Of a stretch of DNA of 64,000 nucleotides, positions 778-47,482 are shown one piece after another (the stretch's first letter is position 1; every line of letters starts with the position of its first letter). Source of the stretch: Candidatus Micrarchaeota archaeon (GTDB taxonomy: Archaea; Micrarchaeota; Micrarchaeia; Anstonellales; Bilamarchaeaceae); contig JAGMCT010000013.1 in the NCBI GenBank assembly GCA_023129075.1, positions 42,538 to 106,537 on the forward strand, read 5' to 3'. The position numbers and the translations under genes are program-made. The notes beneath the pieces are model-generated. The model was not told the DNA's origin. It made no database searches and worked only from the letters and a program-made list of their open reading frames with translations.

Positions 778-977
778 GACGGGCCCGAAGGGAACTTGAA
801 ATCCGCAGTCTTGGAAACCAAAGGTTTCCGAGAGAATTACCCGGAGGGTAATCCGAGGGACCATCTGTTTTTTGGACGGGCCCGAAGGGAACTTAGAAAC
901 CTCTAAGTTTCTGAGTGCATTTTTACGGAGTAAAAATCCGCAGGGACCGTCTTATTTTGTGGACGGGCCCGAAGGGA
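778..977 (-). repeat. Tandem repeats of the tRNA-Arg 3' end separated by double-hairpin spacers
   Basis: GACGGGCCCGAAGGGA occurs at 778, ~875 and 962 (the tRNA itself). Spacers contain GGAAACC-AAA-GGTTTCC, ATTACCC-GGA-GGGTAAT, AGAAAC-CTCTAA-GTTTCT and ATTTTTAC-GGA-GTAAAAAT. Confidence 0.9.
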
Positions 978-1063
978 TTCGAACCCTCAACCTTCTGGTA
1001 TCCTCTAGCACTTTAGAGGAGCATCCGAAGCCAGACGCGCTATCCAGGTTGCGCTACGAGCCC
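964..1063 (-). tRNA. tRNA-Arg(TCG) with a 25-nt intron at canonical position 37/38 (1000-1024)
   Basis: GGGCTCG...CGGGCCCG acceptor stem, TCTGG-CTTCGG|intron|A-CCAGA anticodon arm, GAGGG-TTCGAAT-CCCTT T arm. A relaxed bulge-helix-bulge can form (CTTC:GAGG helix). Confidence 0.93.
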
Positions 1064-1959
1064 TATTTTGTAGTAACTTCAACACCGTTCGCAGTAATAA
1101 TAATAGTGTGTTCAAACTGTGAAACCAAGCCACCTTCTGCTTCCTTCAGCACAGGATAAGCCTTGAGCATCTGAGTCCTGAGCATTTCCTTTAAAGCATT
1201 CTTGAGGAGTAGTTTGGATTTGCATTCTTTATGGAGCCAGCGCTCTGCAAAAGGCAGAAGGCCGTATTCATTTAAAATGTGTGTTAATATTCTTCTGGAT
1301 TCTCTCATTCTTACCTGTCCGGGCATGTAAAGAGAAAAGATTTCAACCTGGTCCGTATCATTTACATATCCCTTGCCATCTGTTGCAAAGGGTTCTATCG
1401 CAAATATATCCCCTTCCTGGAATTCATAAGGGTCTTCTGTTTTTACATTAGGAACATCTATACCTGCATGAAGAATGCCTGGTCTGAGCATATGGCCTGT
1501 AAGGTTTGAGATAGGCTTGAAGCCGTCTGCTTTTATTATCTCCTCCACTACTCCTCCTACTTCCCCTACCTTTACACCTGGTTTTATGAATTTCAGGGCA
1601 GCATCCAGGGCCTTCCTTGAGGCGTCCAGAAGTTTCCCATGTTTTTCGCTCAGGTCAATAGTATACGCAGTGTCGGAAAGGCCGTCGTTCACATTCACCC
1701 CGAAATCCACCTTTACGATATCATCATCCCCGAAAACAGCATCTGAGCCTGCCTCTGGAGTATAATGTGCAGCAATATTATTTATGCTGATGTTCACAGG
1801 AAATGCAGGTTTATATCCTTCTTCTGCAATCATGCCTTCTATCGTTTCGGCAACATCAAGAAGAGAACCGCCCGGCATGACCAAATTCTCGCTTTCTTTT
1901 CTTATTTTTGATGCTATCTTTCCGGCAGTTCTAAAATCATCATAATTAATCTCGTCCAT
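1063..1959 (-). CDS. map: Methionine aminopeptidase type II
   Basis: AFPVNISINNIAAHYTP, KVDFG, DTAYT, NLTGH, FAIEPFAT and QFEHT metal-site motifs. Confidence 0.97.
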   Translation of the reverse strand: MDEINYDDFRTAGKIASKIRKESENLVMPGGSLLDVAETIEGMIAEEGYKPAFPVNISINNIAAHYTPEAGSDAVFGDDDIVKVDFGVNVNDGLSDTAYTIDLSEKHGKLLDASRKALDAALKFIKPGVKVGEVGGVVEEIIKADGFKPISNLTGHMLRPGILHAGIDVPNVKTEDPYEFQEGDIFAIEPFATDGKGYVNDTDQVEIFSLYMPGQVRMRESRRILTHILNEYGLLPFAERWLHKECKSKLLLKNALKEMLRTQMLKAYPVLKEAEGGLVSQFEHTIIITANGVEVTTK

Positions 1960-2039
1960 GGCTTATATTGGTGTATGATGTGTTTTAAAAACTTGCTTAT
2001 TGTCCGATGCTTGTTATACTATTATGCAATTCCGAGGGG

Positions 2040-3152
2040 TTATTGAACTAATCTTTTTACCCTGCCCTCATCCTGTTTCTTTTGAGGTCCCCTCATTTCC
2101 TTATTCTCAATATTTTCATTATTGTTCCACACTCTTTGAAGATTACTGAATAATTCCAATGATTCTGTTTTTGATATCATCCCTTTCTTTTGAAATTTTC
2201 TAAGTAATTGGATTACTTCTTTTCTTTTATTCGGAAGAATATCCTCTGGATTGGAAAACAAATAAATCAAAAGCTTTTGTTCTTTGGTGAATAGCTCTGG
2301 TTTTTCTTTTGCAATTTTGTTTATTGTTTCTTTTGTTGTGTTGTAGTAATTGTATGCATAAAGAACATCCGCCCCTTTCTGTATAAGGAGTTCACCCATT
2401 TCTGTATTTCTCCCTCCAGCAGTTACAATTAGTGCTGTCTTGCCATCCTCGTCTTTTGCATTTACATCTGCTCCTTTTTCTATTAAGAGTTCGGCTGTTT
2501 TTGTATGTTTATAGTAAGAAGCATACATCAATACAGTATAGCCATTCTCACCCTTTGCATTTACATCCACCCCTAATTGTATTAATAATTCGGCTGTTTC
2601 TGAATGCCCATTCTTAGATGCTTCTATGAATACTCTCTCAGCACAATTACTCTTTACATCTACTTCTGCTCCTTTTTCTATCAATAATTCAATTGTTTTT
2701 GTATGTCCGTTCCTAGCAGCATGTATTAATGCTGTTTCACCATTATTATCTTTTGAATTTACCTCTGCTCCTTTTTCTATCAATAATTCAATTAGTTCTG
2801 TATATCCTTTAGAAACAGCAAACATCAGTGCTGTCCGACCATTTTTATCCTTTGCATTTACATCTGCTCCTCTCCCTATCAATAATTCTACTGTTTTTGT
2901 TTGTCCATTTTTAGAAGCATACGTCAATAGTGTTATATCCTGCTCAGTCTTTACATTTACATTTACATTTGCTCCTTTCTCTATCAATAATTCAACTGCT
3001 TTTATATGTTTCTGGTCAAAAGCATGTATTAATGCTGTCAAACCCTCCTTATCTCTTGTATCTATGTCCACTCCCATCCTTATTAATAATTCAAGTGTTT
3101 CTGCTTGTTCGTCTTTAGCGGCTTTCAGTATTTCATCGCTCCAATAAATCAT
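2040..3152 (-). CDS. Ankyrin repeat protein with basic C-terminal tail
   Basis: About 8 repeats of GxTAL..A...GHxxxxELLIxKGAxVNAKD. Confidence 0.95.
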   Translation of the reverse strand: MIYWSDEILKAAKDEQAETLELLIRMGVDIDTRDKEGLTALIHAFDQKHIKAVELLIEKGANVNVNVKTEQDITLLTYASKNGQTKTVELLIGRGADVNAKDKNGRTALMFAVSKGYTELIELLIEKGAEVNSKDNNGETALIHAARNGHTKTIELLIEKGAEVDVKSNCAERVFIEASKNGHSETAELLIQLGVDVNAKGENGYTVLMYASYYKHTKTAELLIEKGADVNAKDEDGKTALIVTAGGRNTEMGELLIQKGADVLYAYNYYNTTKETINKIAKEKPELFTKEQKLLIYLFSNPEDILPNKRKEVIQLLRKFQKKGMISKTESLELFSNLQRVWNNNENIENKEMRGPQKKQDEGRVKRLVQ

Positions 3153-3245
3153 AATACTACATTTATGTAGACAATTTAAAAAAGTTTCCCCCTATAAAAA
3201 TCTTATTCCTGGAGTATATTTATCCAACCGCATATTTTTAATTGG

Positions 3246-3536
3246 TTGCTGAACAGTATGACAACTATGGCCTCTTTGAAAGAACTGGAAAAATGGATGT
3301 GTAGAATAGAGGAAAGGAACAGAAAGGTGGAAGGAAACAAAGCATGGGAAACAAGTTATTCAAGAAGGATTCTGCTTACAGTGTTCACCTATTTGGCTGT
3401 CGGGTTCTATCTTCAGGCAATAAATATCCCAAACGCATGGCTTAATGCAATCGTTCCTGCAGTAGCGTTTATGCTTTCTACATTAACACTTCCATTCTTT
3501 AAGGAAATGTGGCTGAGGTATATTTACAGGAAATAA
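3246..3536 (+). CDS. Small two-TM membrane protein (start may be 3258 or 3267)
   Basis: IEERNRKVEGNKAWETS followed by two hydrophobic helices. Confidence 0.7.
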   Translation: MLNSMTTMASLKELEKWMCRIEERNRKVEGNKAWETSYSRRILLTVFTYLAVGFYLQAINIPNAWLNAIVPAVAFMLSTLTLPFFKEMWLRYIYRK

Positions 3537-3684
3537 AAGAAGTTTATTTGGAAACCATCATCATCAATCTATTGAATTCTATTGTATATTCAAAAGGAAG
3601 CTCTTTTATAAAATCCTTGGATAAATCAAGCATAAGAAGTCTTGAGTGGTTATTTTTAAAAAAATTGTAGTTCAGAAAACAAAC

Positions 3685-4704
3685 CTACCTAAAGGGCCTC
3701 ATGTTTCTTTTTAATTGAAAAACAAAAGGAAGATTTATTGAAAGGGATTTCTTTGCAACCTCCAGTTCTTCAGGGTCCATAGCTGCACGCAGGTCTGCTT
3801 CTATAAGAACCGATGGATAAGCATAGGAAGAATTTATTGCTGAAAGGGAATGGACAGCAGAAGCAATATCATCAATCTTAAGCAAGGAGTTGAGATATTC
3901 TATTCGCAGAGGCCGGTCCCCCTGCACGGGTTTTAGGTAAAATATACGGATATCATCTGCAAAATCCTTTAAATCCCTAAGAGTCTGGTGCTTGGATGCC
4001 TCTTTGGAATAATAAATAGAAGAGGTCCTTTCCCCTTCCTTAAGAAGGTAATTAAGAAAGAATGTATCTGAGGTTCGGAAAGGGATGTGTGAAGGAAAAA
4101 GTTCAACAAACCTTCTTGCGCGGGAATCCTTTATCAGACCAAGAAGCTGTGTATTCTTCTCCTTTGCAATGGAGTAAAGATTCTTATATTTTGAAATCAA
4201 TTCTATGTATTTCTCAAAAAGAACAGAACTCTCGGAAGGTTTATCAGCAGGCAGAGGAAGGATGGAACCATCAAGAAAAAAGAAATCAGGACTGTATTTT
4301 TTTATTGCGGAGATTGCTTCTTTTATTTCGGAATCCAAACGAACAATGGATTTGTGCCAAAGGATTTCCTTTTCATCAAGACCCATCATTATTTCATATG
4401 AGGGCTTGGGAAAGGAAGATGGAGAATAAACAGAGGAAATAAGGGAAGAATTTTCGTATTCAAAGATTGCGGAAGCAGAACGGAAGATAAGAACATCAAC
4501 ACCATGCATCTCATAGGAAAGGATGCCCCCGTCAACAGCTCCAACCTTTAAATCAAGGGAAGAAGGAGATACGGGAAGAATCATTTTGCCTTCAATGAAT
4601 TCCATTGAATCCGGGTTTTTTTCCTTGAGCTTTTCTGCAGAATTCTTTATCTTTTCCTCCTTTTTCTGGATATGTAATGCTGCTTCTTTCAACTCTTCAA
4701 GCAT
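3685..4704 (-). CDS. nurA: DNA double-strand break repair nuclease NurA
   Basis: GAVDGG, FLDGSI, GLIKDS, PLRIEY and YAYPSVLIEAD motifs. Confidence 0.88.
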   Translation of the reverse strand: MLEELKEAALHIQKKEEKIKNSAEKLKEKNPDSMEFIEGKMILPVSPSSLDLKVGAVDGGILSYEMHGVDVLIFRSASAIFEYENSSLISSVYSPSSFPKPSYEIMMGLDEKEILWHKSIVRLDSEIKEAISAIKKYSPDFFFLDGSILPLPADKPSESSVLFEKYIELISKYKNLYSIAKEKNTQLLGLIKDSRARRFVELFPSHIPFRTSDTFFLNYLLKEGERTSSIYYSKEASKHQTLRDLKDFADDIRIFYLKPVQGDRPLRIEYLNSLLKIDDIASAVHSLSAINSSYAYPSVLIEADLRAAMDPEELEVAKKSLSINLPFVFQLKRNMRPFR

Positions 4705-6034: not shown

Positions 6035-6035
6035 C

Positions 6036-6389: not shown

Positions 6390-6420
6390 GGAAAGATTTC
6401 ACAGAACAGGTTTAAAAATC

Positions 6421-6978: not shown

Positions 6979-6979
6979 A

Positions 6980-7474: not shown

Positions 7475-7497
7475 AAATAAAAGAAAAAGAAAGGAAT

Positions 7498-10400: not shown

Positions 10401-13400
10401 CTCCAAGAATGGAGCTTCCTGTAAGGGTTTGGATTCCTGTGAAATTATTATTCCAGCATGATTCAAGGTATATGGAAGCATAAAGGTTTTCTTCTGAAGT
10501 GATATCTCCTAAGAATTTATTGCTTCCTGAGTAATTAAGGAAAAGAGCAAAAACATTCTGTGATGCACTAAGCTTAAGGTTCTCAAACTTATTTGAGCTT
10601 GAGGAGTTCATGTAAACTCCATAGGTAGCTCCAATGGAAGTTATATTTGCTTCTGAGAAATTATTGCTGTTTGAACTCTGGAAATACAGAGCTTCCTCTC
10701 CATTGCCTGAGAGGTTTATACCTCCTGAGAACAGGTTTGATGAGGAAGTATCGAAGTAAATTCCTGTAACAGTATTCAAGTGGGAGATAACAGGCAGATT
10801 GAAAACATTGGAATGAGAAGTATCCATGTAGATTCCGGATTGGGAATTGCTTTTTGTATCTATTGAACCATCCAAGAATCTATTTGAGCTTGAGGATTCC
10901 ATATAAATACCATAAGTTGCGCCATTAGATTCAATCTCCGCATCATCAAAGAGGTTATAATGAGAATTATCAAAATATAAATTCGCATATGTATTATCTG
11001 AAAAACTCACCTCTCCGGAAAAATTATTATTACCTGAGGAATCAAGATAAAGACCGGCCAGAGAATTATCAGATGCATCCAGCTCTCCCCCATCAAAAAC
11101 ATTATTGTTTGAACTATTCAGCAAAATTCCTATATTGCCGTTTGAAGAATTTATTGTTCCGTTGAAAAGATTATAAGTTGATGTATCAAGGTATATGCCT
11201 GCTTCTGTATTGATATCAGCTTCCAGTTCAAATTCTGTAAAGCGATTGTAATCCGCCTGCTCTAGATATACTGCATAATCTGAACCTGAGCTTGAGATAT
11301 TTGCTCCTGTGAAATTATTATAATCAGATATGAGTAGATAAAGTCCAGATATGCCGTTGCCGGAAACATTAATGTCTCCAGAAAAAACATTGTAATCTGA
11401 GAATTCAAGATAAACACCAATCTGGATATTATCTGATGAATTCATTGTTCCGTTGAAGAGATTATTATCTGAATTGTTCAGCATTATACCGGCTGTGTTG
11501 GTGTCTCCCTGGAAAAGGAACTCCTTAAATCTATTACTATTTGAGTTTTTTAGATAAACCGCATAAATAGAACCAGAACCTGTGATGTTTGCATCTGTGA
11601 AATTGTTGGAGTCTGCATTCTCAAAATAAAGACCGTAGTTTGTATTTCCTGTGGTTATGAGTTGTCCTTCAAAAGAATTATCTTCTGAATTGAGCATGTA
11701 GAGCCCTGAGTCCGAATTCAGGTAAGGTGCCAAGGTATTGACAAATTTATTGGAATTGGAATTATCAAAGAAAACACCGTGTCTGTTGCTGTATACCTGA
11801 AGTGCGCCTGCTCCAAAATCTCCTATGCTGTTTTCAACATTAAGAAGGTAAAGACCATCAAGGCTATTGGAATAAATCTCACCTGAAATATCTAACTGAG
11901 AATTATTAAGGTTCTCAAAGTAAATGCCTGTTAAGGAGTTGTCATGGATGTCTATTGAAGACAAATCTGCAGACAACTCCAATGGAGTTGGATAGCCCAC
12001 AACATATATTCCATGTTGATTATGGTCTATTTCTGTATTTAAAAGATTAAGCGATGCATGAGGGTTCGCAAGAAGATAAATACCATCAAGGGCATTACTC
12101 TGTATCTGAGAGGAATCCGCTGATATGTTGGACCCGTCCAAATAAACCCCATATAGTTGGTTGTTGCTAATATCCGAAGGACCATTAAGATAAATATAAC
12201 TTGAAGTAGCGTTTATACCGCTTTCCTTGTTGTTTTGCGAGGTAAGAGAAGAGCCTGCTTCAAAGGTTACGGGGCCCGCACCACTCCCTTGGTAACCAAC
12301 TAATAACCCACCCCTATCATTTAAATTAGTAGTAACCGCATTCGAAAAAGAGGAAGGTATTGGACCGTTAAGCCATATGCCGAATCCCTTATTTTGATTG
12401 GTGATTATTGAACCCAAAGAAGTTATTTTATAAGCTACTATACCAGCGCACGGCGACCAAATTGGTCGACAGAAATCACCTACATCCAAATTGTTTCCAT
12501 TTGCCGTTATAGAAGAACCTGCACCAACAAGAAGACTACCATCAGTGTAAATTCCGTTTCGAGCATTCCCGCTTGCTATGGTAGTACCGTAAAACTCTCC
12601 GCCACCATCGCCAAGAGTAAAAGAACTTAAAGAAATGCCTTGCTGAGAGTTATCTTCAACGGTGACACCACTGTTGAATACTGCATAGTAAGCGTGTATG
12701 CCATTCAAAAGGTTCCTGCTCGCCCCGACATGACCGTTGAAGGTTGCCGTGTCGTATATTGATATTCCATGGCCGCCGACATTATCGTTTGCACTCACGG
12801 TATTGCCAAAAGTCGCATTACCGTCTACAGATATGCCTGCATAGCTCGACCCGCTTATGCCGTTACCGTTTGCTGAGACTGGACCAGCAAAAGACACATC
12901 GGCATCTCCACAACCCCCCGAGGGTCCAATCAATTGCAATCCAGATTGCCTGTTGCTGTTCGCGGTAACAACTCCCGAAAGTGAAATGGAAGAGCCCCTC
13001 ATTTTAATACCATCTGCAAAATTCCCATTGGCAGTAACGCCACTAAGGGAGTGTGTAGTTCCATAAGCCTCCATACCATATAAACCATTACCCGAAGCAG
13101 TTACACTGCCAGTGATGGTTATGTCCAATCCAGCATACAAACCACTATCCCCGTTACCCGAAGCCTCGATGGAACCAGCTTGGAGGCTTCCGCTTGTAGA
13201 TGTTCCAGCTCCAACATTGCCATTTGTGGTAATAGAATCAGCTACAATGTTTCCAAACGAAATACTTAAACCACTCAATCCATTACCCGAAGCCTCAATG
13301 GAATTAGCTTGGAGGCTTCCAGCAGAAGTCATTATTCCCCGTCCACCATTACTATTTGCGGTAATGGAAGTGGCTGAAACATCTCCAGTCCCAACAAGTA

Positions 13401-16400
13401 TACCCGTACCTCCATTACCCGAAACATCGATTGAAGTGGCTGTAATATCTCCAGTCCCAACATTTATACCATAACCTCCATTACCCGAAGCATCAATGGA
13501 AAGGGCTGTAATATCTCCAGTCCAAACAAGTATACCATGTGCTCCATTACCCGAAGCATCGATGGAAGAGGCGCTGATTCCATTCTTTGCCCAGATCCCA
13601 TCCCCTGTACCACCAGTTGCGGAGTAGCTATCGCCACCAAGAAACACTTCGGACCGGATTCCATAGGTGCAACCACAACCTCCAAGAGATATCCCACTAG
13701 GGGGAGTGGAACTCCCATCTATGTAAACGCATGCGTCATACACACAAGCCTCTCCGCTGCCACCAACCGCGGTAATGCCCAAATCATTGTCAACTGAAGG
13801 GTCAAGGACTAGTGCGGTACCGCTGAAATTGTATACTATAAAATTGGGCGCAGTATTTCCGTTGGAATTATCAAAGAAAACACCATTTTTTGTATAATTT
13901 ATTGATACGTTATAAATAGTGTTGTTATCAGTATAATCAAAATAAAAGCCCGTATCGGTTGTATTGAAAATTGAAATATTCTCAATAGTGTTATTACCTC
14001 CTTCTTCAATTACAATTCCTTCATCTCCTGAAAGATAGAATGTTCCGTTCCATACAGAACTGTTGTAAGTACTCAAAAGATAAACATGGGTAGCAATGTG
14101 GTCTGCAGAAAAGATATTGCTTGTGCCTGAGGTATTGGAGGATGAAAGGTTGTACATTGAAACATTAAAGCAATTATTCTGAACAAAATTATGTGTGTTG
14201 GATGAGGAAGAAGTATTGAAGATTGACGAGTTTTCCATTGAATCAAAATAGATTCCAAGGGTGTAATTTTCTATTATACAATTTCTTACTGTAATATTAT
14301 GAAGATTATCTGCATATATCCCTATAGTTATACCTGATTCGGTTCCCTGAATTGAAAACCCATTGCAGTCAAGAACTGTGTTATTTGAGATTATGGAAAG
14401 GCAAGCTCCGGTTGTTAGGTTGCCCACTACATTCCCAGTTAACAGGGTGTCACCGCTAATCTGCCTGCAGATACCTGCTTCGCTTGCTGCATAACCAGAG
14501 AAATCCTCAACCTGGAAGGTTGTCTCTTCTCCGACACAAGAAGAATATGCTGGAGTAAATGAAAGACTATTGGAAAGAATTGCCTCTCTGGAAACAGGAA
14601 AACCGGACTTTTCTAGATAAAGTGTATTAGTGCATGTTGGCGTCCAGAGTGTAAGGTTTGCAGGTGCATTCATGGCTGAGGGTATTCCGGCGCTTGAGGT
14701 GTCCAGGGAAGTGAAATTCCATCCAAGCAAAAGGTTTGAACTCGTAATATCGGGGTCATCACCTGAATCAGTAAGGGATAAAGAAGGATAATTAAGAAGA
14801 CCTATTGTTTCATTGTAACCAAGCGTAAGATTTGTAAAGATGTTGTTTGTTGATGAATCAGTTAAGAGAATATATTTAGTCTGATTGTATTGGAACATAT
14901 TCCTAATCTCCATGCTGATAAAACTGGAAGAATTGAAACCATACGAAGTTGTATTGAAGATAGTTATGTCTTCCAACTCAACATTATTTCCCCATCTAAA
15001 AACAAACCCATAACCTGCCGTATCTATTGTAACATTCTTTATCAGGTAATCCACTGCACCTTCAAGGTAGAATGCATGACCTGAAGTGCTGGAAATGGAG
15101 ATATTCTCAATAGTGTTATTCCCTCCCCCTTCAATAACGATTCCTTCATCTCCAGAAAGATAGAATATGGAGTTCTCAACAGAACTGTTGTAAGTATCCA
15201 AAAGATAAACATGAGATGCCACATGAACAGAAGAAAAGATATTGCTTGTGCCCGAGGTATTGGAAGAGGAAAGGTTATGCATTGAAACATTAAAGCATTC
15301 ATTCTGCACAAAATTATGTGAGTTGGATGAGGAAGAAGTATTGAAGATTGATGAGTTTTCCATTGAATCAAGATAGATTCCAAGGGTGTAATTCTTTACA
15401 ATGCAGTTTTTCAACCTAATCTGGTCTGAAGAATCCATGAAAATACCTGCGGTTATTGCAGTTAAATCTCCTATAATTGAAGAGCCGTTGCAGTCTATTG
15501 TAATATTCTTTGCATAAGAGATGTTAAGGCAGGAGCCTTCAGAAGTAAAACCTGAAAGGTCTGTTCCCAGGTAATATTCCTTATCAGAACCTGTAATTCC
15601 TCCGCAGAGATTTATTTCTTTTGCATCATAAATGAAACCAATCTGGTCTATTGAAATATCCACAGACTGGGAGGTATTTACATAGCATCTAAATGTATGT
15701 GCAAAATCAGAGGCATTTACAACACTCAGAGCGCTCATGGAAGCAGAAACATCAAAGTTGGGGAGCCAGTCGCTGTAGTTGAAGAATGTCTCCCATTGGT
15801 GTGAAGAGGTGTTCCACCACTGCATCAGGAATGTTGCAGGGATAGTTTCATTTGATTTGAGTTCGCATGTGAAGTTTGCAAAATAAATTTCGTCCAATGG
15901 GCCTCCGGTATTCCAGGTTCCATTTACCCAATAAACCTGTGTATTATTTTTAGCCGCATAAACATCATCTGAAGAAGAAAGGTTTGTGGTTACTGTATTG
16001 TCATCCACATCAAAGGCAATGAAATTGCTTCCTTCCATGTAACCTGGGTCTGTAGCTGAAAGGTTGATGGTGTATTCATGTCCTGGGAGTGTTGGAAATA
16101 AGTATTTCCATTCTCCTGTGCATTCCTGTGCATCATAATCCCAATCCTTGCATTTGAAAAGGAAGTATCCTTTGGCTATTACTGTTACTTCAGCAGAATC
16201 TATATTTTTGGGGTTAATGGAGAATGCCTGGAGAGGGTCTTCTTCAGGGGCATTTGAAAAATTCTTGTCAAGCATCTGGAATTCCAATTGGGAATCCTTT
16301 GTAATGTTGTGTATTTTTACCTCGGTTATTGGGCTGTTCTGGATAACTATTGTTCCTTCTGTTCCCTGCTTTTCAAAAGAGTATTCTATCTTTCCTTCTG

Positions 16401-21235: not shown

Positions 21236-21400
21236 AACAGAAGGTTCAAAGGTAGAAGTTCAAGGTATCTACGCAAGGAGTTTCCAGAGCTCCTAAAGAT
21301 GCCTAAATTATGGACACGCTCATATTTCCTTTCAACTACTGGAAATGTTTCATCTGCAACAATACGAAAATACATAGAAAGGCAATGGGATGAGATATGA
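21236..21400 (+). pseudogene. tnpA: Y1 transposase TnpA, C-terminal fragment only
   Basis: Translates FKGRSSRYLRKEFPELLKMPKLWTRSYFLSTTGNVSSATIRKYIERQ with the catalytic Tyr helix. An in-frame stop lies just upstream and there is no HUH motif or start codon. The stop overlaps the tnpB start (ATGA). Confidence 0.85.
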
Positions 21401-22410
21401 TATTAACCTATAAGATAAAGCATGAAAAAGATTTCGGCAGAGAACTCAGCTTGGCGAAGAAGGTAGCTAAACATGCCATCAGACAAAGAACTTTATCCAG
21501 TAAAGATGTAAAACATATCGGTCTAAAATCCATGATTGCCAATCAAATCCTTAGAAAGTATGCAAGGAATAAGACAGTCAAAAATATCAATTCTATAAAG
21601 TTGACAATCCCTTCTCAGGGAATCAGATTCACAGATAGGGAGATAACAATACCTTGTCTGAAACTTGTTCTCCCCATCAACTTCAACCATTCATTTGAAA
21701 AGATAAACCAGATTGAAGTTGGCGAAACATTTGCCTATGTTTCTTGTTCTTATAAAGAGCCTCGGCAATATACCTCAAAGCAGATAATTGGCGTAGATAG
21801 GAACACCACAGGGCATGTGTTGGTTGCTTCCAATATCAACACAGGAAAGGTGCTGAAACTTGGAAAGGAGTGCAACCACCTTCATAAAAAATACAAAAAC
21901 ATAAGGAAAAACCTTCAGAAGAAGGGCAAGTATTCTCTCGTCAAAAAAATCAAAAACAGGGAGAGTAGAATTGTCAGAAACATAAACCATCAGATAAGCA
22001 AATGCCTTGTTAAAGAAGCGCAGAACAACAAGGCGATTATAGTCCTTGAAGGATTGAAAGACATCCAAAAGACAGCAAAGGTAAGAAGGAGGCAACTGTA
22101 TTCCCTAAACTCTTGGAGTTTCTATCAATTGCAGAACATGATAGAATACAAAGCCAAAAAGTTTGGAGTGCCTATTGCCTATGTTGAACCACAATATACC
22201 TCTCAGAGGTGTAGTAGGTGTGGTCATATAGACGCAAATAACAGAAAAGGAAAACAGTTCCATTGTGCTAAATGCTCAATGGTTGAGAATGCCGATGTAA
22301 ACGCAGGATTCAATATTGCCAGTTTATATCATCAAGGCATATCTCGATTCAACACAGAAAGGGATGTGTTGGAGGGGAGCACTGATACCCCTAAAGGTGA
22401 GATGCTGTGA
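21397..22410 (+). CDS. tnpB: RNA-guided endonuclease TnpB (337 aa)
   Basis: RuvC I GVDRN, RuvC II VLEGL, WSFYQLQNMIEYKA, YTSQRCSRC..CAKC zinc finger and RuvC III NADVNAGFNI. Confidence 0.95.
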   Translation: MILTYKIKHEKDFGRELSLAKKVAKHAIRQRTLSSKDVKHIGLKSMIANQILRKYARNKTVKNINSIKLTIPSQGIRFTDREITIPCLKLVLPINFNHSFEKINQIEVGETFAYVSCSYKEPRQYTSKQIIGVDRNTTGHVLVASNINTGKVLKLGKECNHLHKKYKNIRKNLQKKGKYSLVKKIKNRESRIVRNINHQISKCLVKEAQNNKAIIVLEGLKDIQKTAKVRRRQLYSLNSWSFYQLQNMIEYKAKKFGVPIAYVEPQYTSQRCSRCGHIDANNRKGKQFHCAKCSMVENADVNAGFNIASLYHQGISRFNTERDVLEGSTDTPKGEML

Positions 22411-34172: not shown

Positions 34173-34208
34173 AGTATATAATAGGGGCGAGGAAGTTTAA
34201 AAATGTTG

Positions 34209-38037: not shown

Positions 38038-38042
38038 TTATC

Positions 38043-38951: not shown

Positions 38952-38999
38952 ATGCTTATATTTATGAACACAAAAGTATTTAAACCTAACGAATCAAAC

Positions 39000-39014
39000 G
39001 TAACCATAGTTACA
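39000..39014. repeat. Palindromic 15-mer GTAACCATAGTTACA, copy 2
   Basis: Identical to 38023-38037. Confidence 0.8.
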
Positions 39015-39059
39015 CGAACCGCGCAAAACATTTATAAACATCAGGAAAGAAGCCGGATT

Positions 39060-42130: not shown

Positions 42131-42528
42131 TTGTTTTTGTTTACTTTTTTTCCAAGTGTTTTAGCTTTTTCAAATTGTTTCGGCTTGTGCAGCTGCTTTT
42201 TATCAATTGGTTCCTGGCGTGAAAGAAAAGAATCTGTTTCTCTTTTAATTAGCTCTGCTATCTCTTTATGGCCTTCCCTATTGGCAAGCTGAAGTGCTGT
42301 AAGTCCATTTTCATCTTTTACAAAGGGGTTTACGCCCTGCTCAAATGCTTTTTGAACATCCTTGTAAATGCCGATATATGCACCATTCAAAAGAAGCAGT
42401 TCCCACCTTCCTATGTGAGCTTTATGCCAAAGGGTATTCTTTCTATTAAATTTTTCTGTATTGTTGACCACAATAACACCAGTCCAAATGATGTTCAGAA
42501 ATGTTTTTAAATGGGTGTCATGAACCAC
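42127..42528 (-). CDS. Small single-ankyrin protein or remnant
   Basis: GVNPFVKDENGLTALQLANREGHKEIAELI; start uncertain. Confidence 0.65.
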   Translation of the reverse strand: MVHDTHLKTFLNIIWTGVIVVNNTEKFNRKNTLWHKAHIGRWELLLLNGAYIGIYKDVQKAFEQGVNPFVKDENGLTALQLANREGHKEIAELIKRETDSFLSRQEPIDKKQLHKPKQFEKAKTLGKKVNKNN

Positions 42529-42587
42529 AATAAATTACTATGAATAAAAGACAATAATTTAAATAGTATTCTTAAAAAAGAAAAAGA

Positions 42588-44072
42588 GTGGTGAAAACAA
42601 TGAAACTCCATGAAAGGATATTTGAACTCGCACTCTCACGGTCTTTCTTCTTTCCAAGCAATGAAATCTATAAGGCAAATGCAGGATTCTATGATTTCGG
42701 CCCTACAGGCCTGCTCATGAAAAAAAGGATGGAAAACCTATGGAGAAGAATGTTTATACAGGAAGAGGGTTTCCATGAGATTGAAAGCACTACAGTAACT
42801 CCTGAAATAGTCCTGCAGGCATCAGGGCATGTAGATGAATTTACCGACCCTGTAGTGGAATGCAAAAAATGCAGCACCAAATTCCGTGCCGACCACATAA
42901 TAGAAAACAAAGGAGTGAAATGGGACGGAAAACTTGAAACCCTAAATAAAGTAATAAAAGAAAAAGATATTCACTGTTCATCCTGCGGAGGAGAATTCAG
43001 TGATGCAGTCTTTTCAAACCTTATGTTTGCAACCGGAATAGGGGTGGAAGCATCAAAAGCATATCTAAGGCCTGAGACCGCCCAGGGAATATTCACCTCC
43101 TTCCACAGAATTTTCAGAAACCACGGAATGAAACTTCCCATAGCAGTCGGCCAGATTGGAAGGAGTTTCAGAAATGAAATTTCTCCAAGAAAAGCGCTTG
43201 TCCGCTTAAGAGAATTCACACAGATGGAGCTTGAATATTTCTTTAATCCTGCATTCCAGAATATTGAAAATTTTGAACAAATAAAGGAGAAAAAAATAAT
43301 ACTGCTTACAAGAGAAGCACAGGAAAAAAAGGAAAAGCCTGTTGAAATAAGCGCCGGGGAAATGGTTGAGAAAGGAATCTGCAACGAAATAATGGCCCAC
43401 TTCTTAGTCAAGGAATGGGAATATTACAAAAAGGTGGGCTTGGATGAAAAAAGGATGTGGTTCCGCCATCTTTTGGACAATGAAACACCGCACTATTCAA
43501 AAGGAAATATGGATTTGGAGGTTGAAACCTCCTATGGAATAATAGAGATTGCAGGAAACGCTTACAGAACAGATTATGACCTTAGACAGCATCAGAAATT
43601 CAGCAGGCAGAATCTTGAGGTTTTTGACCCTAAAGAAAACAAAAAAGTCCTTCCTCATGTAGTTGAAGTTTCTATGGGAGTTGACCGCATGTTTTTCTGT
43701 GTTCTTGAACATTCATTCAGAGAAAAAAGCAAGGAAAAAGAATGGGAGTGGTTTGAATTCAGTCCATTAATTTGTCCTTATGAAGTAGCTGTGTTTCCTT
43801 TGGTAAAAAAAGACGGTCTGCTTGAAAAAGCAGAAGAACTCGCAAAGCAACTAAGAGAGGATTTCCAGGTATTCTTTCATCCAAGCGGAAGCATAGGAAG
43901 AAGATATGCAAGGGCTGATGAGATTGGGATTTCATATTCCCTAACCATAGATTATGACACAATGGATGACAATACAGTAACAATAAGGGAAAGAAATACA
44001 GGAAAACAAGAAAGAGTAAAAATAGAAAATCTAAAAGAAGAAATAAAAAAGAAAATTAGTGCTTTTTTATAA
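42588..44072 (+). CDS. glyS: Glycine--tRNA ligase (homodimeric type)
   Basis: YLRPETAQG, SFRNEISPR, REFTQME and GSIGRRYARADEIG. Confidence 0.97.
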   Translation: MVKTMKLHERIFELALSRSFFFPSNEIYKANAGFYDFGPTGLLMKKRMENLWRRMFIQEEGFHEIESTTVTPEIVLQASGHVDEFTDPVVECKKCSTKFRADHIIENKGVKWDGKLETLNKVIKEKDIHCSSCGGEFSDAVFSNLMFATGIGVEASKAYLRPETAQGIFTSFHRIFRNHGMKLPIAVGQIGRSFRNEISPRKALVRLREFTQMELEYFFNPAFQNIENFEQIKEKKIILLTREAQEKKEKPVEISAGEMVEKGICNEIMAHFLVKEWEYYKKVGLDEKRMWFRHLLDNETPHYSKGNMDLEVETSYGIIEIAGNAYRTDYDLRQHQKFSRQNLEVFDPKENKKVLPHVVEVSMGVDRMFFCVLEHSFREKSKEKEWEWFEFSPLICPYEVAVFPLVKKDGLLEKAEELAKQLREDFQVFFHPSGSIGRRYARADEIGISYSLTIDYDTMDDNTVTIRERNTGKQERVKIENLKEEIKKKISAFL

Positions 44073-44451
44073 TCTCAAGCGCCTTTGAATATTGCTCGTC
44101 TCTTGGTTTTAATGCAACATCTGTTGTTTCTGACCTTTTGTTTATAATGTACACACTTTCAAGGTCTATTCCCTTATTTGCAAACTTTCGTGTTATCTTT
44201 CCTAATTCTCCGGGCCTATTTGTCATCTCAACAACAATAATATCGGATACAATAATATTCTTTATTCCTTTAATTTTCTCAAGGGTTTTCCTTGCGCTTG
44301 TAACATCTTTTGTGACAACCCTGAAAACAGCATTCTTATCGCTTTCATAAGCTGAGATTGCCTCTATGTTTATTCCTACTCCCCCCAGTGCTTCTGCAAT
44401 GGTAGCAAGTGTTCCTACACTATTCTCTGCTATTATTGTTACTTCATTCAT
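44056..44451 (-). CDS. Tandem ACT-domain protein
   Basis: NSVGTLA...GINIEAI and NRPGELG...GIDLESVY. Confidence 0.88.
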   Translation of the reverse strand: MNEVTIIAENSVGTLATIAEALGGVGINIEAISAYESDKNAVFRVVTKDVTSARKTLEKIKGIKNIIVSDIIVVEMTNRPGELGKITRKFANKGIDLESVYIINKRSETTDVALKPRDEQYSKALEIIKKH

Positions 44452-44518
44452 TTACTCACCTAAATGAGTAATTACAGAAAGTGCTTAAAAACCTACCGTT
44501 TCACTAATAATAATTGAA

Positions 44519-45814
44519 ATGGTCCATAAAATACAACAAAAAAATCTGGCTGAAAAGCGAACCAAATTAGTTTCAAGAATGCTTGGAAAAGGATACAGCG
44601 GAAAGAAATTCGCAAAACTTTCCAGAGAGAAAAAAGAAACAGCTTCTGAACTGGTAATAAAAAGGTATAATCTTCTTTTTAAAATGATAAAAAAAGAGAT
44701 AACTTCCGAAGAACTCGTTGAACTTGACAACTGCAACAAAGAACTGGAAAAGAAATACGGGATGAAACTGTATTCTGCAAAGAAAATGTATGGGATAATC
44801 AAAAGATATTCAGATATAAAAAGAGAAAGCACCATAAAAAAATATGTTAGAAGAATGGAAACAAATCCAGAGGTATTTGTCATTTCAGAATTAAAAAATG
44901 TGATTCCAAAAAAAATGAAAGAAACGGAATTCAATCCAAATCCAGCAGTATTTAGATCTATTCTTGAATTCAGAAACAGACCAAGAGGGAAAATAAGCAG
45001 ATGGAGAAGAGATATTTGCAATACTGCATTTGTTCAAATTGCAAACAAAGCAGATAGATATGAAGGAAAGAAAAGAAGAATGAGCATGAGAGAACTAAAA
45101 AAACAGATTCAGCAAAGGCTTGAATATATGAAAACCAATTTCATGAAAACAAAGGAATTCAGAAGAAATAAAAGATACTGGAATTCTGTATTCAAAACAA
45201 TGAATCCGGAGATTTTTATAAGTGTCGGAGTAAAAAACCTTGCAGGAGAGATTAAAGGTTCCAAGAAAAAAATAGATTTGGTAAAAAAAGAAATGGATAA
45301 ATACGGCCCTCTTTACTTAAGCTTAAAACCTTCAAACAGGAATTTTTACTCTTTCGGTCTTTTTGAAGCAAACCGAAAAAAGGTTATGACATCCTACAGA
45401 ATCGGAAGGGATATGAAAGTCAGGCATCCTTCCAGACTAAGCAGATATACAAAACTCCAGGACCACATAGATGGAGAGATTCTTTACATGTTAAACAGAT
45501 TTTATTTGGTCGGGAAAGCTTTAAAGAAATCAGGAAATTTCGAAAACTTTGTTTCTTCTTTAGAAGGGGAATCATTTTCAAAAAAACGGGCTTTCCTAAG
45601 CTGCATTTATTATTTATCCAGAGATATGGAAAAAAATGAAACGCCTATAAGACTTCTTGTAGGAAATATGGTTTATAAAAGGTTAACACAAGGGGATGAA
45701 ATACGAACACTCAAAGATATTTACTCAATTTTAAGAAATTCAAAAAAACTAGAGGATGTTGCGACTCTTTATACAATGCTTGAAATGGAAGGAGTAAAGA
45801 TAGCAAAAAGGTAA
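44519..45814 (+). CDS. Hypothetical highly basic protein
   Basis: 431-aa ORF, Lys/Arg-rich, with host-like codon usage and no recognised motif. Confidence 0.7.
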   Translation: MVHKIQQKNLAEKRTKLVSRMLGKGYSGKKFAKLSREKKETASELVIKRYNLLFKMIKKEITSEELVELDNCNKELEKKYGMKLYSAKKMYGIIKRYSDIKRESTIKKYVRRMETNPEVFVISELKNVIPKKMKETEFNPNPAVFRSILEFRNRPRGKISRWRRDICNTAFVQIANKADRYEGKKRRMSMRELKKQIQQRLEYMKTNFMKTKEFRRNKRYWNSVFKTMNPEIFISVGVKNLAGEIKGSKKKIDLVKKEMDKYGPLYLSLKPSNRNFYSFGLFEANRKKVMTSYRIGRDMKVRHPSRLSRYTKLQDHIDGEILYMLNRFYLVGKALKKSGNFENFVSSLEGESFSKKRAFLSCIYYLSRDMEKNETPIRLLVGNMVYKRLTQGDEIRTLKDIYSILRNSKKLEDVATLYTMLEMEGVKIAKR

Positions 45815-45887
45815 AATGGAAAAACTTTTCCTTTGGCAAATTCAAGGTGGTTTGTCGCGATATTACTTTTACAGAACAATGGATGAT

Positions 45888-46868
45888 TCAGCCAAGTTGC
45901 CCTAATGCAGCTTTGATATCCCTGGCACTACCTCTCCCTTCATTTAAGCACTTCAAAAGTTCTTCTTTGAAATTCTCTTTTTCCAATTCCTCAACATTAT
46001 TACAGAATACTAGTCCACATAGCACCCTTGCATAATTAACATCCGATTCTGGCAGTCTATTCTTTAGGTCGCAGAACAGTTGCACTGCCTCCTGGTTTTT
46101 TCCCAACTCTTTCAGGCAATAAGCGCGTATGCATTCAGCCAGATTTCCTATTTCATAAGGTTTCGGGACTTTAAGGAAATCATCAATTTTTGAAATCACT
46201 AAATCATATTTCTTTTGTTTTCTCAATGCTTCACAGGAATTCAAAAACATGTTATTGTTCTTCTGGATATGGGGTGGGGCTTTCTCTATTAGAGAAATGA
46301 TTTCCCCAAACATATCACGCCGGTAGTATGCGTCAATCATGGAATTGCAGGTAACAACATTTGCTATGTTCTTTTGTACTACTTCATCAAAAATTTCCTT
46401 TGCATTTGTTACATCTCCTGCTTTTCCGTATGCATCAATCATAGAATTATATGTATATTCATCTGCTATTCTTCTGCTTACTGCTTTGTCAAAGATTTCC
46501 TTTGCATTTGTTACGTCTCCTGCTTTTCCGTATGCATCAATCATAGAATTATATGTATATTTATCTGTTATTCTCCTGCTTATTGCTTTGTCAAAGATTT
46601 CCCTTGCCTCTAACAATTTCCCTCTTATGCCCAATACTTTAATCAAAATATTCATAAAAAATACATCTGAAGGGTGGTCCAGTAAGGTCTCTTTCAAAAG
46701 TTTTTCTGCCTCCTGATATTTGTGTTTTATAATCAAAATCTTAGCTCTTGCAGATATCTGTCTGGACTGCTCTGAAGTTTTTGGTCCTTTTCGGCTGAAG
46801 GCTTTGTTTTTTGGACTTCCATTGCTTCTATTAGCTAATTTGTTTGGTTTATAAGGATATTTGTCCAT
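45888..46868 (-). CDS. Pentatricopeptide-repeat-like (PPR) protein with flanking TPR-like helices
   Basis: YTYNSMIDAYGKAGDVTNAKEIFD twice, plus VTCNSMIDAY and FFMNILIKVLG, matching the PPR consensus. The likely start is MDKY at 46868. Confidence 0.85.
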   Translation of the reverse strand: MDKYPYKPNKLANRSNGSPKNKAFSRKGPKTSEQSRQISARAKILIIKHKYQEAEKLLKETLLDHPSDVFFMNILIKVLGIRGKLLEAREIFDKAISRRITDKYTYNSMIDAYGKAGDVTNAKEIFDKAVSRRIADEYTYNSMIDAYGKAGDVTNAKEIFDEVVQKNIANVVTCNSMIDAYYRRDMFGEIISLIEKAPPHIQKNNNMFLNSCEALRKQKKYDLVISKIDDFLKVPKPYEIGNLAECIRAYCLKELGKNQEAVQLFCDLKNRLPESDVNYARVLCGLVFCNNVEELEKENFKEELLKCLNEGRGSARDIKAALGQLG

Positions 46869-46940
46869 TCTAATATTGTGGTAAATAAGTATTAAAAATG
46901 TTCCTATGGGATTCATTTACCAAAAGGGCTTCTTCGTAGA

Positions 46941-47246
46941 TTATCCAAAGGATAAACCGACCGAGTGAGCAGTAAGAATACGCTGAGGGAGGGAACTTGG
47001 AAATCCGCAGGATTTCTGAGTGTTTTATCCGTAGGATAAACCGACCGAGTAAGCAATAAGAATACGCTGAGGGAGGGACCTTGGAAATCCAATAGATTTC
47101 TGAGTGTTTTATCCATAGGATAAACCGACCGGGTGAACAGTAAGAATACGCTGAGGGAGGGAACTTGGAAATCCGCAGGATTTCTGAGTGTTTTATCCGT
47201 AGGATAAACCGACCGAGTAAGCAATAAGAATACGCTGAGGGAGGGA
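46941..47246 (-). repeat. 84-bp tandem repeats containing the tRNA-Ser 3' end
   Basis: CGCTGAGGGAGGGA at 46981, 47065, 47149 and 47233; each unit carries two hairpins. Confidence 0.95.
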
Positions 47247-47316
47247 TTTGAACCCTCAAGTCCCGAAAGACACTGGATTAGCAGTCCAGCGCACTACCAG
47301 ATTATGCGACCTCAGC
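47233..47316 (-). tRNA. tRNA-Ser(GCT)
   Basis: GCTGAGG...CCTCAGC-G acceptor stem, CTGGA-CTGCTAA-TCCAG anticodon arm, long variable arm and GAGGG-TTCAAAT-CCCTC T arm. Confidence 0.95.
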
Positions 47317-47482
47317 ATGAGGAGCTCTTATGCGACGAATGCTGTGGGTATTTGCCAAAAGCAAATCTGACCTCAGCATGAGGAGCTCTTATGCAACGAA
47401 TGCTGTGGGTTATCTCCAAAGGAGATTCCGACCTCAGCATTTATGTTGAGGGTATTTGCCAAAGGCAAATCTGACCTCAGCA
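47308..47482 (-). repeat. 61/61/43-bp tandem repeats containing the tRNA-Ser 5' end
   Basis: GACCTCAGCA at 47308, 47369, 47430 and 47473; each unit has a CC-AAA-GG-type hairpin. Confidence 0.92.

Follow-up and report, generated by a model that had tools for sequence, protein, structure and literature searches.

The window analyzed here, a 64,000-nucleotide stretch of archaeal DNA, contains arrays of short palindromic units attached to tRNA genes, and these inserts look like miniature mobile elements of a new kind, which leave their target gene intact. With a probability of about 60%, we read the units as a palindromic insertion element, non-autonomous and lineage-specific, whose accompanying duplication regenerates the tRNA end. 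This reading is favored because orthologous sites are empty in related genera, because near-identical modules stand at unrelated tRNAs, each with its own tRNA's 13-nt copy, and because related modules are dispersed and lie inside open reading frames (ORFs) in a sister genus.

In the archaeal genome examined (0.99 Mb on 25 contigs, with an assembly that is 93% complete), the units are restricted to tRNA ends. Twelve of the 37 tRNA genes, about a third, have their own 3' or 5' end copied within 300 nt. At least 9 nt of the 3' end are repeated downstream of eight tRNAs, and at least 8 nt of the 5' end are repeated upstream of six. At three control positions per word, on the opposite flank or strand, the same tRNA-end words yielded no match. 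The tRNA-anchored hairpin-repeat system that an earlier note had proposed from two loci is real and wider than first noted, and the enrichment beside tRNA genes that it suggested checking is evident. Duplication length differs among kinds of unit, from 24 nt at tRNA-Thr through 13 nt in family 1 (see below) and 11 nt at the 3' end of tRNA-Ser(TGA) to 9 nt at tRNA-Leu(TAG), with 5'-side duplications spanning 8-17 nt. This variation is a poor fit to one enzyme with a fixed stagger.

Two anchoring tRNA genes lie in the window with the following features, for which matches to the search model R1 are given where they support a unit.

964-1063, minus strand: tRNA-Arg(TCG) with a 25-nt intron, anchor of the first array (Rfam RF00005, 54.6 bits; ARAGORN with introns)
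877-963, minus strand: Arg 3' unit 1, 87 nt (R1 match at 890-956, E 1.8e-11; fold)
780-876, minus strand: Arg 3' unit 2, 97 nt (R1 match at 808-870, E 2.2e-17)
47508-47519, minus strand: TATA-like A/T box at normal promoter distance from the distal 5' copy (A/T windows)
47317-47481, minus strand: three 5' units at 47317-47377, 47378-47438 and 47439-47481 (TRF period 61; copies at -61, -122 and -165)
47233-47316, minus strand: tRNA-Ser(GCT), anchor of a 3' and a 5' array (Rfam, 61.8 bits; ARAGORN)
46981-47232, minus strand: three 84-nt 3' units at 47149-47232, 47065-47148 and 46981-47064 (TRF, R1, exact copies)
46932-46980, minus strand: partial fourth 3' unit with linker, CGGTC word and hairpin A only (fold)

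The intron-bearing tRNA-Arg(TCG) was missed by a default ARAGORN run and was found by Rfam and by ARAGORN when introns were allowed. Its trailer holds two units that are unlike one another. Unit 1 consists of an A-rich linker, the CGGTC word, hairpin A, hairpin B and a copy of tRNA nt 61-73 at 877-889. Unit 2, with its nt 61-73 copy at 780-792, is a longer subtype that has an additional half-hairpin. The exact tRNA-end copy is 14 nt long in both. The GGGAACTT word and hairpin that had been matched between the two loci lie at 790-808 and 46990-47009, one G apart; TTTCTGAGTG does occur at both the tRNA-Arg and tRNA-Ser loci, and the three variable but perfectly paired stems described for hairpin 2 are present in the sequence.

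The 3' trailer array of tRNA-Ser(GCT) covers 46932-47232 and has a TRF period of 84 with 3.6 copies, a copy number that comes from the assembly; public contigs of the likely source sample cover the array only as short fragments interrupted at the repeats. The three full units match R1 with E values of 1e-15 to 1e-17 and end in 13-nt tRNA-Ser copies at 47149-47161, 47065-47077 and 46981-46993. The partial fourth unit gives a weak R1 match (46936-46974, E 0.01). On the other side of the gene, one 61-nt 5' unit is missing from one public contig of another study.

The 3' units of both genes belong to family 1, a ~55-nt two-hairpin module that is the same behind tRNA-Arg(TCG), tRNA-Ser(GCT), tRNA-Arg(TCT), tRNA-Lys(TTT) and tRNA-Leu(CAG), which lie on four contigs. 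The claim of one hairpin family common to unrelated tRNAs extends from two tRNAs to five. All eight family-1 copies terminate, with zero mismatches, in nt 61-73 of their own tRNA, which comprise the 3' strand of the T-stem, the 3' strand of the acceptor and the discriminator. The inner modules of Arg-TCG (unit 2) and Leu-CAG (contig C16) are 94% identical over 67 nt, and those of Lys and Ser-GCT are 92.6% identical over 54 nt. On its right, the 3' copy stops at the discriminator: matching continues for 0-1 bases at the three single-unit loci and for no more than 4 at any of the five, a boundary that could instead stem from selection at the RNA level. At tRNA-Lys, the unit and its copy are wedged between the tRNA and a second element, which at three other tRNAs lies directly at the tRNA end or a short distance behind it.

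A search of the genome with model R1 found 17 matches with E<=1, and for 11 of these E was below 1e-5. Eight of those 11 lie directly behind the five family-1 tRNAs. The others are a degenerate copy behind tRNA-Met, a degenerate, inverted orphan copy near tRNA-Gly, and a copy in an array without a tRNA. In the window, a 25-nt degenerate core pattern has three matches versus 0.00 expected from 100 shuffles.

Of the module's 17 base pairs, six covary, and the share of paired cells is 95.6%; 0 of 500 shuffles reach this. RNAalifold recovers the same two-hairpin structure. The paired stems with differing sequence that the earlier note described are borne out by this covariation, which is compatible with a DNA hairpin as well as with RNA. 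The palindromes in the units are the two internal hairpins; the unit ends, an A-rich linker and a CAAG-type tail, are not inverted copies of each other and form no terminal inverted repeats. Seven of eight units have their more stable hairpins on the strand complementary to the tRNA (sums of -146.1 versus -122.4 kcal/mol), where C/A mismatches turn into G-U pairs.

The repeats at 47317-47481 represent a second, 5' kind of unit that is absent from the earlier description. Here the stretch that recurs is nt 1-8 to 1-13, and some copies also take in a few leader bases from outside the tRNA (8+4 nt for Ser-TGA, 13+4 nt for Leu-TAA). A Ser-GCT 5' unit starts with a copy of tRNA nt 1-9 or 1-10; behind it come a variable hairpin and then a strand that is a near-complement of the 5' copy. 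Inspection by eye shows this copy facing the downstream strand with 6/7 positions paired in 5' units of Ser-GCT, Ser-TGA and Cys and with 7/7 paired in one Cys unit, and inner-hairpin stems that vary with compensation.

The promoter has stayed at the distal 5' copy. No A/T box occurs within 60 nt of tRNA-Ser(GCT) itself, and the Ser A/T windows begin at -37 to -35 relative to the distal 5' copy. Among tRNAs without a 5' unit, an A/T box starts at -42 to -30 in 21 of 30. For tRNAs with a 5' unit, a box occupies this interval in 0 of 7 when distances are measured from the tRNA, versus 5 of 5 tested when they are measured from the distal 5' copy.

The intron-bearing tRNA-Arg follows a methionine aminopeptidase gene in related genera too. 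Among 29 methionine-aminopeptidase loci of relatives, the tRNA-Arg is visible in 14, and none of these 14 carries a tRNA-end copy of at least 13 nt. The ATG of the next gene lies 1-2 nt past the tRNA in genomes G092 and G094, versus 204 nt in the genome examined here. Any end copy is found at only 1 of 35 tRNAs in the nearest genus. The nearest genomes retain only ~70% identity in a neighboring protein, and the search turned up no close strain in which the site is cleanly empty.

A scan of related genomes, which the earlier note had put forward as a check, found the module dispersed in the sister genus g2 as well as the orthologous tRNA-Arg site empty elsewhere. The g2 modules are located away from tRNAs. 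Four of them sit deep within long ORFs, one verified by an alignment gap and three further cases, and those in ORFs read in one frame. In genome G001 of this genus, a conserved enzyme carries a clean in-frame insertion of 18 aa relative to its C19 orthologue in the genome examined here. Placement within ORFs is seen in g2 only, whereas the copies in the present genome are at tRNA edges.

The proposed element would consist of the ~55-nt two-hairpin core plus the A-rich linker. Every insertion would directly duplicate the adjoining tRNA segment and so leave a complete tRNA gene beside the insert, and arrays could expand through repeated insertion at the regenerated site or through unequal recombination. 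The duplication may be a target-site duplication produced by a staggered cut that is measured, in a casposase-like manner, from the T-loop/D-loop palindrome. Purifying selection would then clear all insertions whose duplication stops short of the tRNA end. Inserts are probably co-transcribed with the tRNA and removed by normal end processing. The genome encodes a PIN_5 protein, a candidate protein-only RNase P of the HARP type, and an RNase P RNA was not detected in the lineage.

The earlier note had envisaged a ~70-bp element that targets the T-arm, leaves a second copy of the tRNA 3' end and is mobilized by a RAYT/Y1 transposase or a tyrosine integrase. The element itself is favored here, but the proposed agents were not found. 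The window contains one remnant of the relevant kind.

21239-22410, plus strand: IS200/IS605 remnant with a Y1 C-terminal fragment (21239-21385) and a TnpB-type ORF (21397-22410)

The Y1 fragment covers only positions 70-121 of PF01797 in a 54-aa frame and is the sole Y1-type candidate in a genome that has no intact RAYT/Y1 gene; the TnpB-type ORF matches PF07282 (E 3.4e-24). The single tyrosine recombinase, a 407-aa frame, is just downstream of tRNA-Asp, and an exact 11-nt copy of this tRNA's 3' end plus 4 trailer bases recurs 8,715 nt away. This integrase is part of a separate 8.7-kb element at tRNA-Asp, whose att-proximal ends carry no family-1 hairpins. The best match to Cas1 (PF01867) in the genome is noise below the cut-off (E 0.06, 11 bits), and Cas1 is present in 9 of the 99 genomes of the family. 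DDE_Tnp_1 and rve (PF01609, PF00665) have no match in the genome. The enzyme may be supplied in trans by a virus, plasmid or host outside the assembly.

Several observations could also be accommodated if the units worked as RNA, in line with the co-transcribed structured RNAs that were the earlier note's other reading; the modules would be made together with the tRNA or read off the opposite strand. Read in the direction of the tRNA, 5' units fold into minihelices like acceptor stems, 3' units contain an extra acceptor/T-stem strand, and both might serve the end-processing enzymes as substrates or decoys. In the antisense direction, 13 nt complementary to the tRNA 3' end would stand beside two stable hairpins. 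The covariation and its agreement with RNAalifold, the paired 5' copies and compensated inner stems of the Ser-GCT, Ser-TGA and Cys units, the halt of the copy within 0-4 nt of the discriminator, and the greater opposite-strand stability in 7/8 units all point in this direction. Nevertheless, such a role appears unlikely, because orthologous tRNA-Arg genes do without a unit at 14/14 related loci by the 13-nt criterion, 34 of the 35 tRNAs in the nearest genus have no end copy, the g2 module is inside protein-coding frames rather than beside tRNAs, and degenerate copies exist behind tRNA-Met and near tRNA-Gly. Rfam 15, applied to the window and eight loci, matches tRNA and 5S models and no family for the units; the sole C/D-type match (26 bits versus a 42-bit cut-off) is outside them. 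By eye, no bulge-helix-bulge (two 3-nt bulges, 4-bp helix) can be drawn between the T-loop junction and the unit end, and the units have no C box. It is similarly doubtful that integration is anchored on tRNA loop-coding palindromes and measures 13 bp, resembling CRISPR leader-repeat integration without Cas1, and/or that the units are kept as RNA, whether as tRNA-minihelix mimics in leaders and trailers or as antisense RNAs that could pair with tRNA 3' ends over 13 nt. If this were true, RNA units could feed or titrate end-processing enzymes.

A quite improbable explanation is that the units are scars or miniatures of integrase-mobilized elements, with the tRNA-end copy as the att site and the hairpins as leftover ends or arm sites. 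The repeat of the tyrosine recombinase's element at tRNA-Asp is similar in position and size to the 13-nt copies, and archaeal partial tRNA genes from integrating elements are common according to the available text of PMC9897764. Yet such an element must carry the sequence of each target, and five tRNAs each have their own copy beside near-identical modules. Nor would independent decay of large elements repeatedly leave the same 55-nt core; the 8.7-kb element lacks these hairpins at its ends, and the g2 copies are in ORFs without any tRNA. Mobility would be dispensed with altogether if slippage or unequal crossing-over acted at highly transcribed, hairpin-rich tRNA flanks, with one breakpoint by chance inside the tRNA end. 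The Ser-GCT 3' array finishes in a partial unit, as plain tandem duplication predicts; the 57-nt repeat of Leu-TAG and an 85-nt repeat in genome G060 consist of trailer and tRNA end repeated in simple tandem, and copy lengths range from 8 to 24 nt. This origin is highly improbable, as the single units of Arg-TCT and Lys-TTT have no second trailer or module copy behind them (identity past the copy is 0-1 nt), the same module recurs at five tRNAs on four contigs, and related modules occur in ORFs of another genus.

The insertion element favored here has partial parallels among known systems. Rickettsia palindromic elements (RPEs) are short, palindromic, non-coding selfish inserts that keep the reading frame and are hence tolerated in genes. 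The g2 modules are alike in sitting in ORFs, in one frame, and in adding 18 aa to a conserved enzyme. RPEs are of another sequence family and another domain of life, the copies in the present genome are at tRNA edges rather than in ORFs, and RPEs are not known to us to duplicate tRNA ends. RPE-like in-frame insertion was encountered in g2 only, through the 18-aa gap in G001, and was not seen in the genome examined here. REP/BIME-RAYT elements and IS200/IS605 derivatives are short, imperfect, multicopy, non-coding hairpins with strand-asymmetric stability, which insert without target duplication and are recognized by an intact Y1 protein. The units are likewise multicopy, strand-asymmetric hairpins, and an IS200/IS605 remnant is in the window. 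This identity was rejected on the 13-nt duplication that is the rule and on a Y1 fragment of only 54 aa; no GTAG-type conserved head was seen in the units.

MITEs, as defined in the available text of PMC11602168, combine duplications of 2-10 bp with terminal inverted repeats of at least 10-15 bp, and some DPANN genomes have high MITE densities. The units are similarly small, non-autonomous and multi-copy. Identity with a DDE-type MITE was set aside given their internal hairpins, their 13-nt duplication, and the lack of terminal inverted repeats and of PF01609 and PF00665 matches. The partial tRNA genes derived from viruses or islands accompany inserts of 9-23 kb with an integrase, and a direct repeat of the tRNA end flanks the foreign DNA while the tRNA stays whole (PMC9897764, available text). 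The 8.7-kb tRNA-Asp element, flanked by a tRNA-end repeat, is a local counterpart. The units differ in being 40-100 nt long with the same core at many different tRNAs, and five tRNAs with five different 13-nt copies and one core count against their identity as att-site scars.

Casposons, as far as the available text of two papers goes (PMC5137440, PMC4779613), are large and have terminal inverted repeats, a polymerase and Cas1, and the duplication of the A. boonei casposon overlaps the tRNA by only 5 bp. The units, by contrast, lack terminal inverted repeats and are 40-100 nt long, their duplication is wholly nt 61-73, and no Cas1 was found. The same text describes a 14-15 bp duplication made by the Cas1-type casposase next to the T-loop-coding part of a tRNA, with the T-loop-coding segment as the anchor upstream of the duplicated segment, and tandem elements parted by a shared duplication that arise from repeated use of one site (PMC5137440, PMC4779613). 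The 13-nt duplication of the units starts right after the T-loop, in a geometry that is similar though not identical to the one in PMC5137440.

The assembly comprises 25 contigs (987,661 bases, G+C approximately 38.5%), one of which, C5, contains the window. With introns allowed, ARAGORN reports 37 tRNA genes across the whole genome, many of them intron-bearing, and the Rfam tRNA model gives 37 matches, 36 of them above its cut-off. Together, the tRNA introns and the assembly size point to a small archaeal genome. Two tRNA genes in the window anchor the repeats that an earlier note had described from the sequence alone:

964-1063, minus strand: tRNA-Arg(TCG), with a 25-nt intron
47233-47316, minus strand: tRNA-Ser(GCT)

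Every sequence statement in that note proved correct when checked against the window, where a degenerate 25-nt core pattern has three matches and 0.00 are expected. These loci also matter for annotation. The intron-bearing tRNA-Arg is overlooked by a default tRNA scan, and the arrays give rise to false ORFs. Three reading frames of 95-129 aa (46870-47259 and 46913-47224 on the minus strand, 872-1159 on the plus strand) cross the arrays and tRNA genes; because their translations are repetitive, they are by-products of the repeats and not genes. Coding ORFs of the window also hold in-frame tandem repeats at 2455-2928 (99 nt, in an ankyrin-like protein at 2040-3152), 13363-13572 (66 nt) and 46385-46645 (102 nt, in a helical-repeat protein at 45888-46916 that adjoins the Ser array).

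The repeated module that follows tRNA 3' ends (the family-1 unit) is described here in the tRNA sense, from the discriminator downstream. An A-rich linker of 10-17 nt leads to a conserved CGGTC word, hairpin A, hairpin B and a copy of the tRNA end. Hairpin A has 7-9 bp of variable sequence and a 3-nt loop. Hairpin B opens with a conserved CTC(A/G)GAAA word and consists of three outer pairs, a 2x2 or 1x1 C/A internal loop, seven inner pairs and a 3-nt loop; two bases belonging to its outer pairs precede the tRNA copy. Each unit ends with nucleotides 61-73 of its own tRNA, reproduced exactly, and the exact match spans 13-15 nt in all eight family-1 copies (five tRNAs). Beyond the discriminator, the sequence after the copy agrees with the real trailer for 0-1 nt at the three single-unit loci and for 2-4 nt at Arg-TCG.

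The claim that the stems stay paired while their sequences change is borne out by an alignment of eight units. In total, 95.6% of cells are paired, and 6 of the 17 pairs have changed on both sides. Among 500 shuffles, none attains the observed values for paired cells, doubly changed cells or covariation score, and eight attain the observed number of doubly changed pairs. Shifting partners by one to three columns lowers pairing to 17-61%, and RNAalifold, unaided, recovers the identical structure. The hairpins are thus preserved among eight units that are related copies, and the covariation fits a DNA hairpin as well as an RNA one. On the strand opposite the tRNA, C/A mismatches turn into G-U pairs, and the hairpins are more stable in seven of the eight units and equal in one. 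A stem closing the unit, in which the CGGTC word would pair with the 13-nt copy, is not claimed: six of seven positions pair at Arg and Lys, but the pairing fails at Ser.

The family extends to unrelated tRNAs beyond Arg and Ser. A covariance model of the module, R1, has 17 matches in the genome at E ≤ 1, 11 of them below 1e-5. Eight of these 11 directly follow five tRNAs, namely Arg-TCG (two), Ser-GCT (three), Arg-TCT, Lys-TTT and Leu-CAG, which upholds the suspected enrichment beside tRNA genes. The others are a degenerate copy after tRNA-Met, an inverted match 87 nt past tRNA-Gly and one in an array on contig C1 that has no tRNA. A census of all 37 tRNAs agrees with this enrichment: 3'-end copies of at least 9 nt occur within 300 nt downstream of eight, and 5'-end copies of at least 8 nt within 300 nt upstream of six. 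Twelve tRNAs are affected in total, with both kinds present at Ser-GCT and Ser-TGA, and the census words find no match when the other flank or the other strand is searched. Inner modules can be nearly identical between loci (94% over 67 nt for Arg-TCG and Leu-CAG, 92.6% over 54 nt for Lys and Ser-GCT), yet each is closed by the local tRNA's own 13-mer.

A different unit follows tRNA-Leu(TAG), where two 57-nt tandem copies (C11:7827-8030) each end with a 9-nt copy of the tRNA end. Approximately 30 nt of this unit recur in the Leu-GAG trailer and also inside the 111-nt intron of Leu-TAA (C16:53655-53851).

Units on the leader side are found at Ser-GCT (three), Ser-TGA, Cys (three), Leu-TAA, Leu-GAG and Met, with a decayed one at Ser-CGA. 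They open with tRNA nucleotides 1-8, 1-9 or 1-13 and continue with a hairpin resembling hairpin A and then a strand almost complementary to the 5' copy. Such units imply structured leaders of 50-190 nt on several tRNAs. Promoter positions were judged from A/T-only 8-mers of TATA type. Measured from the tRNA, these begin at -42 to -30 in 21 of 30 tRNAs that have no 5' unit and in none of the seven that have one. In the latter, the same spacing is kept to the distal 5' copy in all five cases tested, and by eye at Cys. The original promoter therefore kept its place at the original 5' end, upstream of what is now the complete gene. The duplications at Ser-TGA and Leu-TAA take in four leader bases outside the tRNA, which favours an event at the DNA level.

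Sites that correspond to the tRNA-Arg locus are empty in relatives. The methionine aminopeptidase gene beside tRNA-Arg(TCG) is present in 93 of 99 family genomes, with a best identity of 71% outside this genome, and has no close relative in metagenome contigs. An intron-bearing tRNA-Arg is visible at 14 of 29 related loci that were fetched, and none of these 14 carries a tRNA-end copy of at least 13 nt. In two relatives (G092 and G094), the start codon of a small conserved ORF, the orthologue of window 529-759, lies 1-2 nt past the tRNA. The corresponding interval here is 204 nt, which equals two units plus 20 nt.

At tRNA-Lys, a unit and its copy separate the tRNA from a second element, G-rich, which at Leu-TAA, Ile and Gly lies directly at the tRNA end or shortly after it. 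This is the layout that insertion with duplication, and not tandem duplication, would be expected to leave. In a contig of low depth (4.1) from another study, one 61-nt 5' unit is missing and the sequence diverges from the window 7 nt past the tRNA 3' end, which points weakly to differences between strains. Public contigs at the Ser array end at repeats and hold no information on copy number.

The G-rich element is itself repeated. It spans approximately 60 nt, with two hairpins and a T run after each, and is found at C16:53655 (Leu-TAA), C23:7757 (Ile), C12:97952 (Gly), C17:23243+81 (after the Lys unit) and C1:~12170. It adjoins tRNA 3' ends without any tRNA copy and may be a terminator-like module. 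A similar G-rich hairpin follows tRNA-Arg in G013 and stands ahead of the copy at tRNA-Thr in G094.

Scanning with the model, as the earlier note had proposed, revealed other tRNA loci in this genome, and relatives were scanned as well. At E ≤ 0.001, R1 matches 6 of 98 other family genomes (genus g2, 3/3; g5, 1/1; g14, 2/8). The two g14 matches fall within a repeat in coding sequence, upstream of tRNA-Arg(TCT), and were judged likely to be spurious. In g2, the architecture of the module is retained with different stem sequences, and the module is not beside tRNAs. Four g2 copies lie deep within ORFs of 203-373 codons, a count that leaves out modules in the first 35 codons, and several are read in one frame. 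One G001 protein, similar to type-2 isopentenyl-diphosphate isomerase, differs from its orthologue here by a clean 18-aa gap exactly at the module.

End copies with unrelated hairpin inserts occur at 3 of approximately 20 tRNAs in G060, one of them being the 85-nt tandem repeat at tRNA-Arg(TCG). This count omits a Ser-GCT match that lies within an ORF at +298, as well as a 457-nt 'Gly' prediction that is too implausible to be a tRNA. In the nearest genus, g14, end copies are found at 1 of 35 tRNAs. The habit thus occurs across the family at low frequency and has expanded greatly in this genome. The exact module pattern has no match in metagenome contigs, and a 25-nt pattern allowing one mismatch finds nothing in 40 relatives. 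A looser pattern yields 34 single matches, all in genome contigs of unrelated bacteria, which were taken as chance.

Genus g2 presents two further observations. G001 (1.5 Mb, 89% complete) has only four tRNAs at E ≤ 1e-4 with the Rfam model, compared to 20-43 in other family genomes, and it belongs to the genus with dispersed modules; perhaps its tRNA genes are strongly interrupted or missing from the assembly. Two g2 genomes also share a run of at least five hairpins with the module embedded (L032, G001:C7:~26000; L118, G099:C53:~4700), which looks like a larger structured RNA or a composite repeat.

The reading favoured here, with a probability of about 0.6, is that the units belong to a non-autonomous, palindromic insertion element, and that the duplication which accompanies it restores the tRNA end. 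The element would cut at the loop boundary and duplicate exactly what remains of the tRNA gene; duplication length differs between unit kinds, and the units may since have taken on an RNA role. Several other explanations were rejected. Against pieces of split or permuted tRNAs stands the intact tRNA that adjoins every anchored locus, and for a bulge-helix-bulge intron at position 59/60 no such motif could be drawn. Guide RNAs of the C/D or H/ACA type were set aside because the units have no C box and do not follow the ACA rule. The copies have no CCA, which speaks against a retroelement primer-binding site.

If the insertion reading is true, the units are a miniature mobile element able, through its insertion rule, to live inside essential tRNA genes, and about a third of the tRNA genes in a 1-Mb genome carry it. 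Empty sites, single units, arrays and in-ORF copies in a sister genus would then form a natural series in which to study the origin, without Cas1, of long and measured target duplications.

The earlier note had anticipated such an element at the T-arm, with duplication of the tRNA 3' end, and the empty sites in relatives and tRNA-specific 13-mers favour that part. It had also suggested a RAYT/Y1 transposase or a tyrosine integrase as the agent, a suggestion that found no support here. Candidate enzymes reside in two elements:

window 21239-22410: IS200/IS605 remnant with a 54-aa Y1 transposase fragment and a 337-aa TnpB-type ORF, between ribosomal-protein-like and NusA-like genes
C12:2305-11091: 8.7-kb integrated element whose tyrosine recombinase (407-aa frame) adjoins tRNA-Asp(GTC)

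The Y1 sequence is only a fragment, and the recombinase, the one such enzyme in the genome, belongs to the tRNA-Asp element. This element is bounded by a 15-nt repeat, the far copy of which consists of an exact 11-nt copy of the tRNA 3' end plus four trailer bases. A second TnpB-type ORF is located on C2, and DDE_Tnp_1 and rve domains are absent from the genome. No link was found between the modules and the Y1 remnant, the TnpB-type ORFs or the recombinase.

Archaeal RNase P RNA is found in 81 of 99 family genomes and was detected neither here nor in g14 (0/8). The apparent paradox was rejected: a PIN_5 protein, the HARP-type form of RNase P that works without RNA, is encoded in 89 of 99 family genomes, including this one (C5:3003-3539).

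A literature search for archaeal miniature elements that duplicate tRNA ends returned nothing closer than casposase. Unlike casposons, the units have no inverted termini, and Cas1 is absent from this genome. Casposase is the nearest mechanistic model in print: it generates a 15-bp duplication beside the T-loop-coding part of tRNA-Pro, at a site that can be reused in tandem (PMC5137440, PMC4779613).
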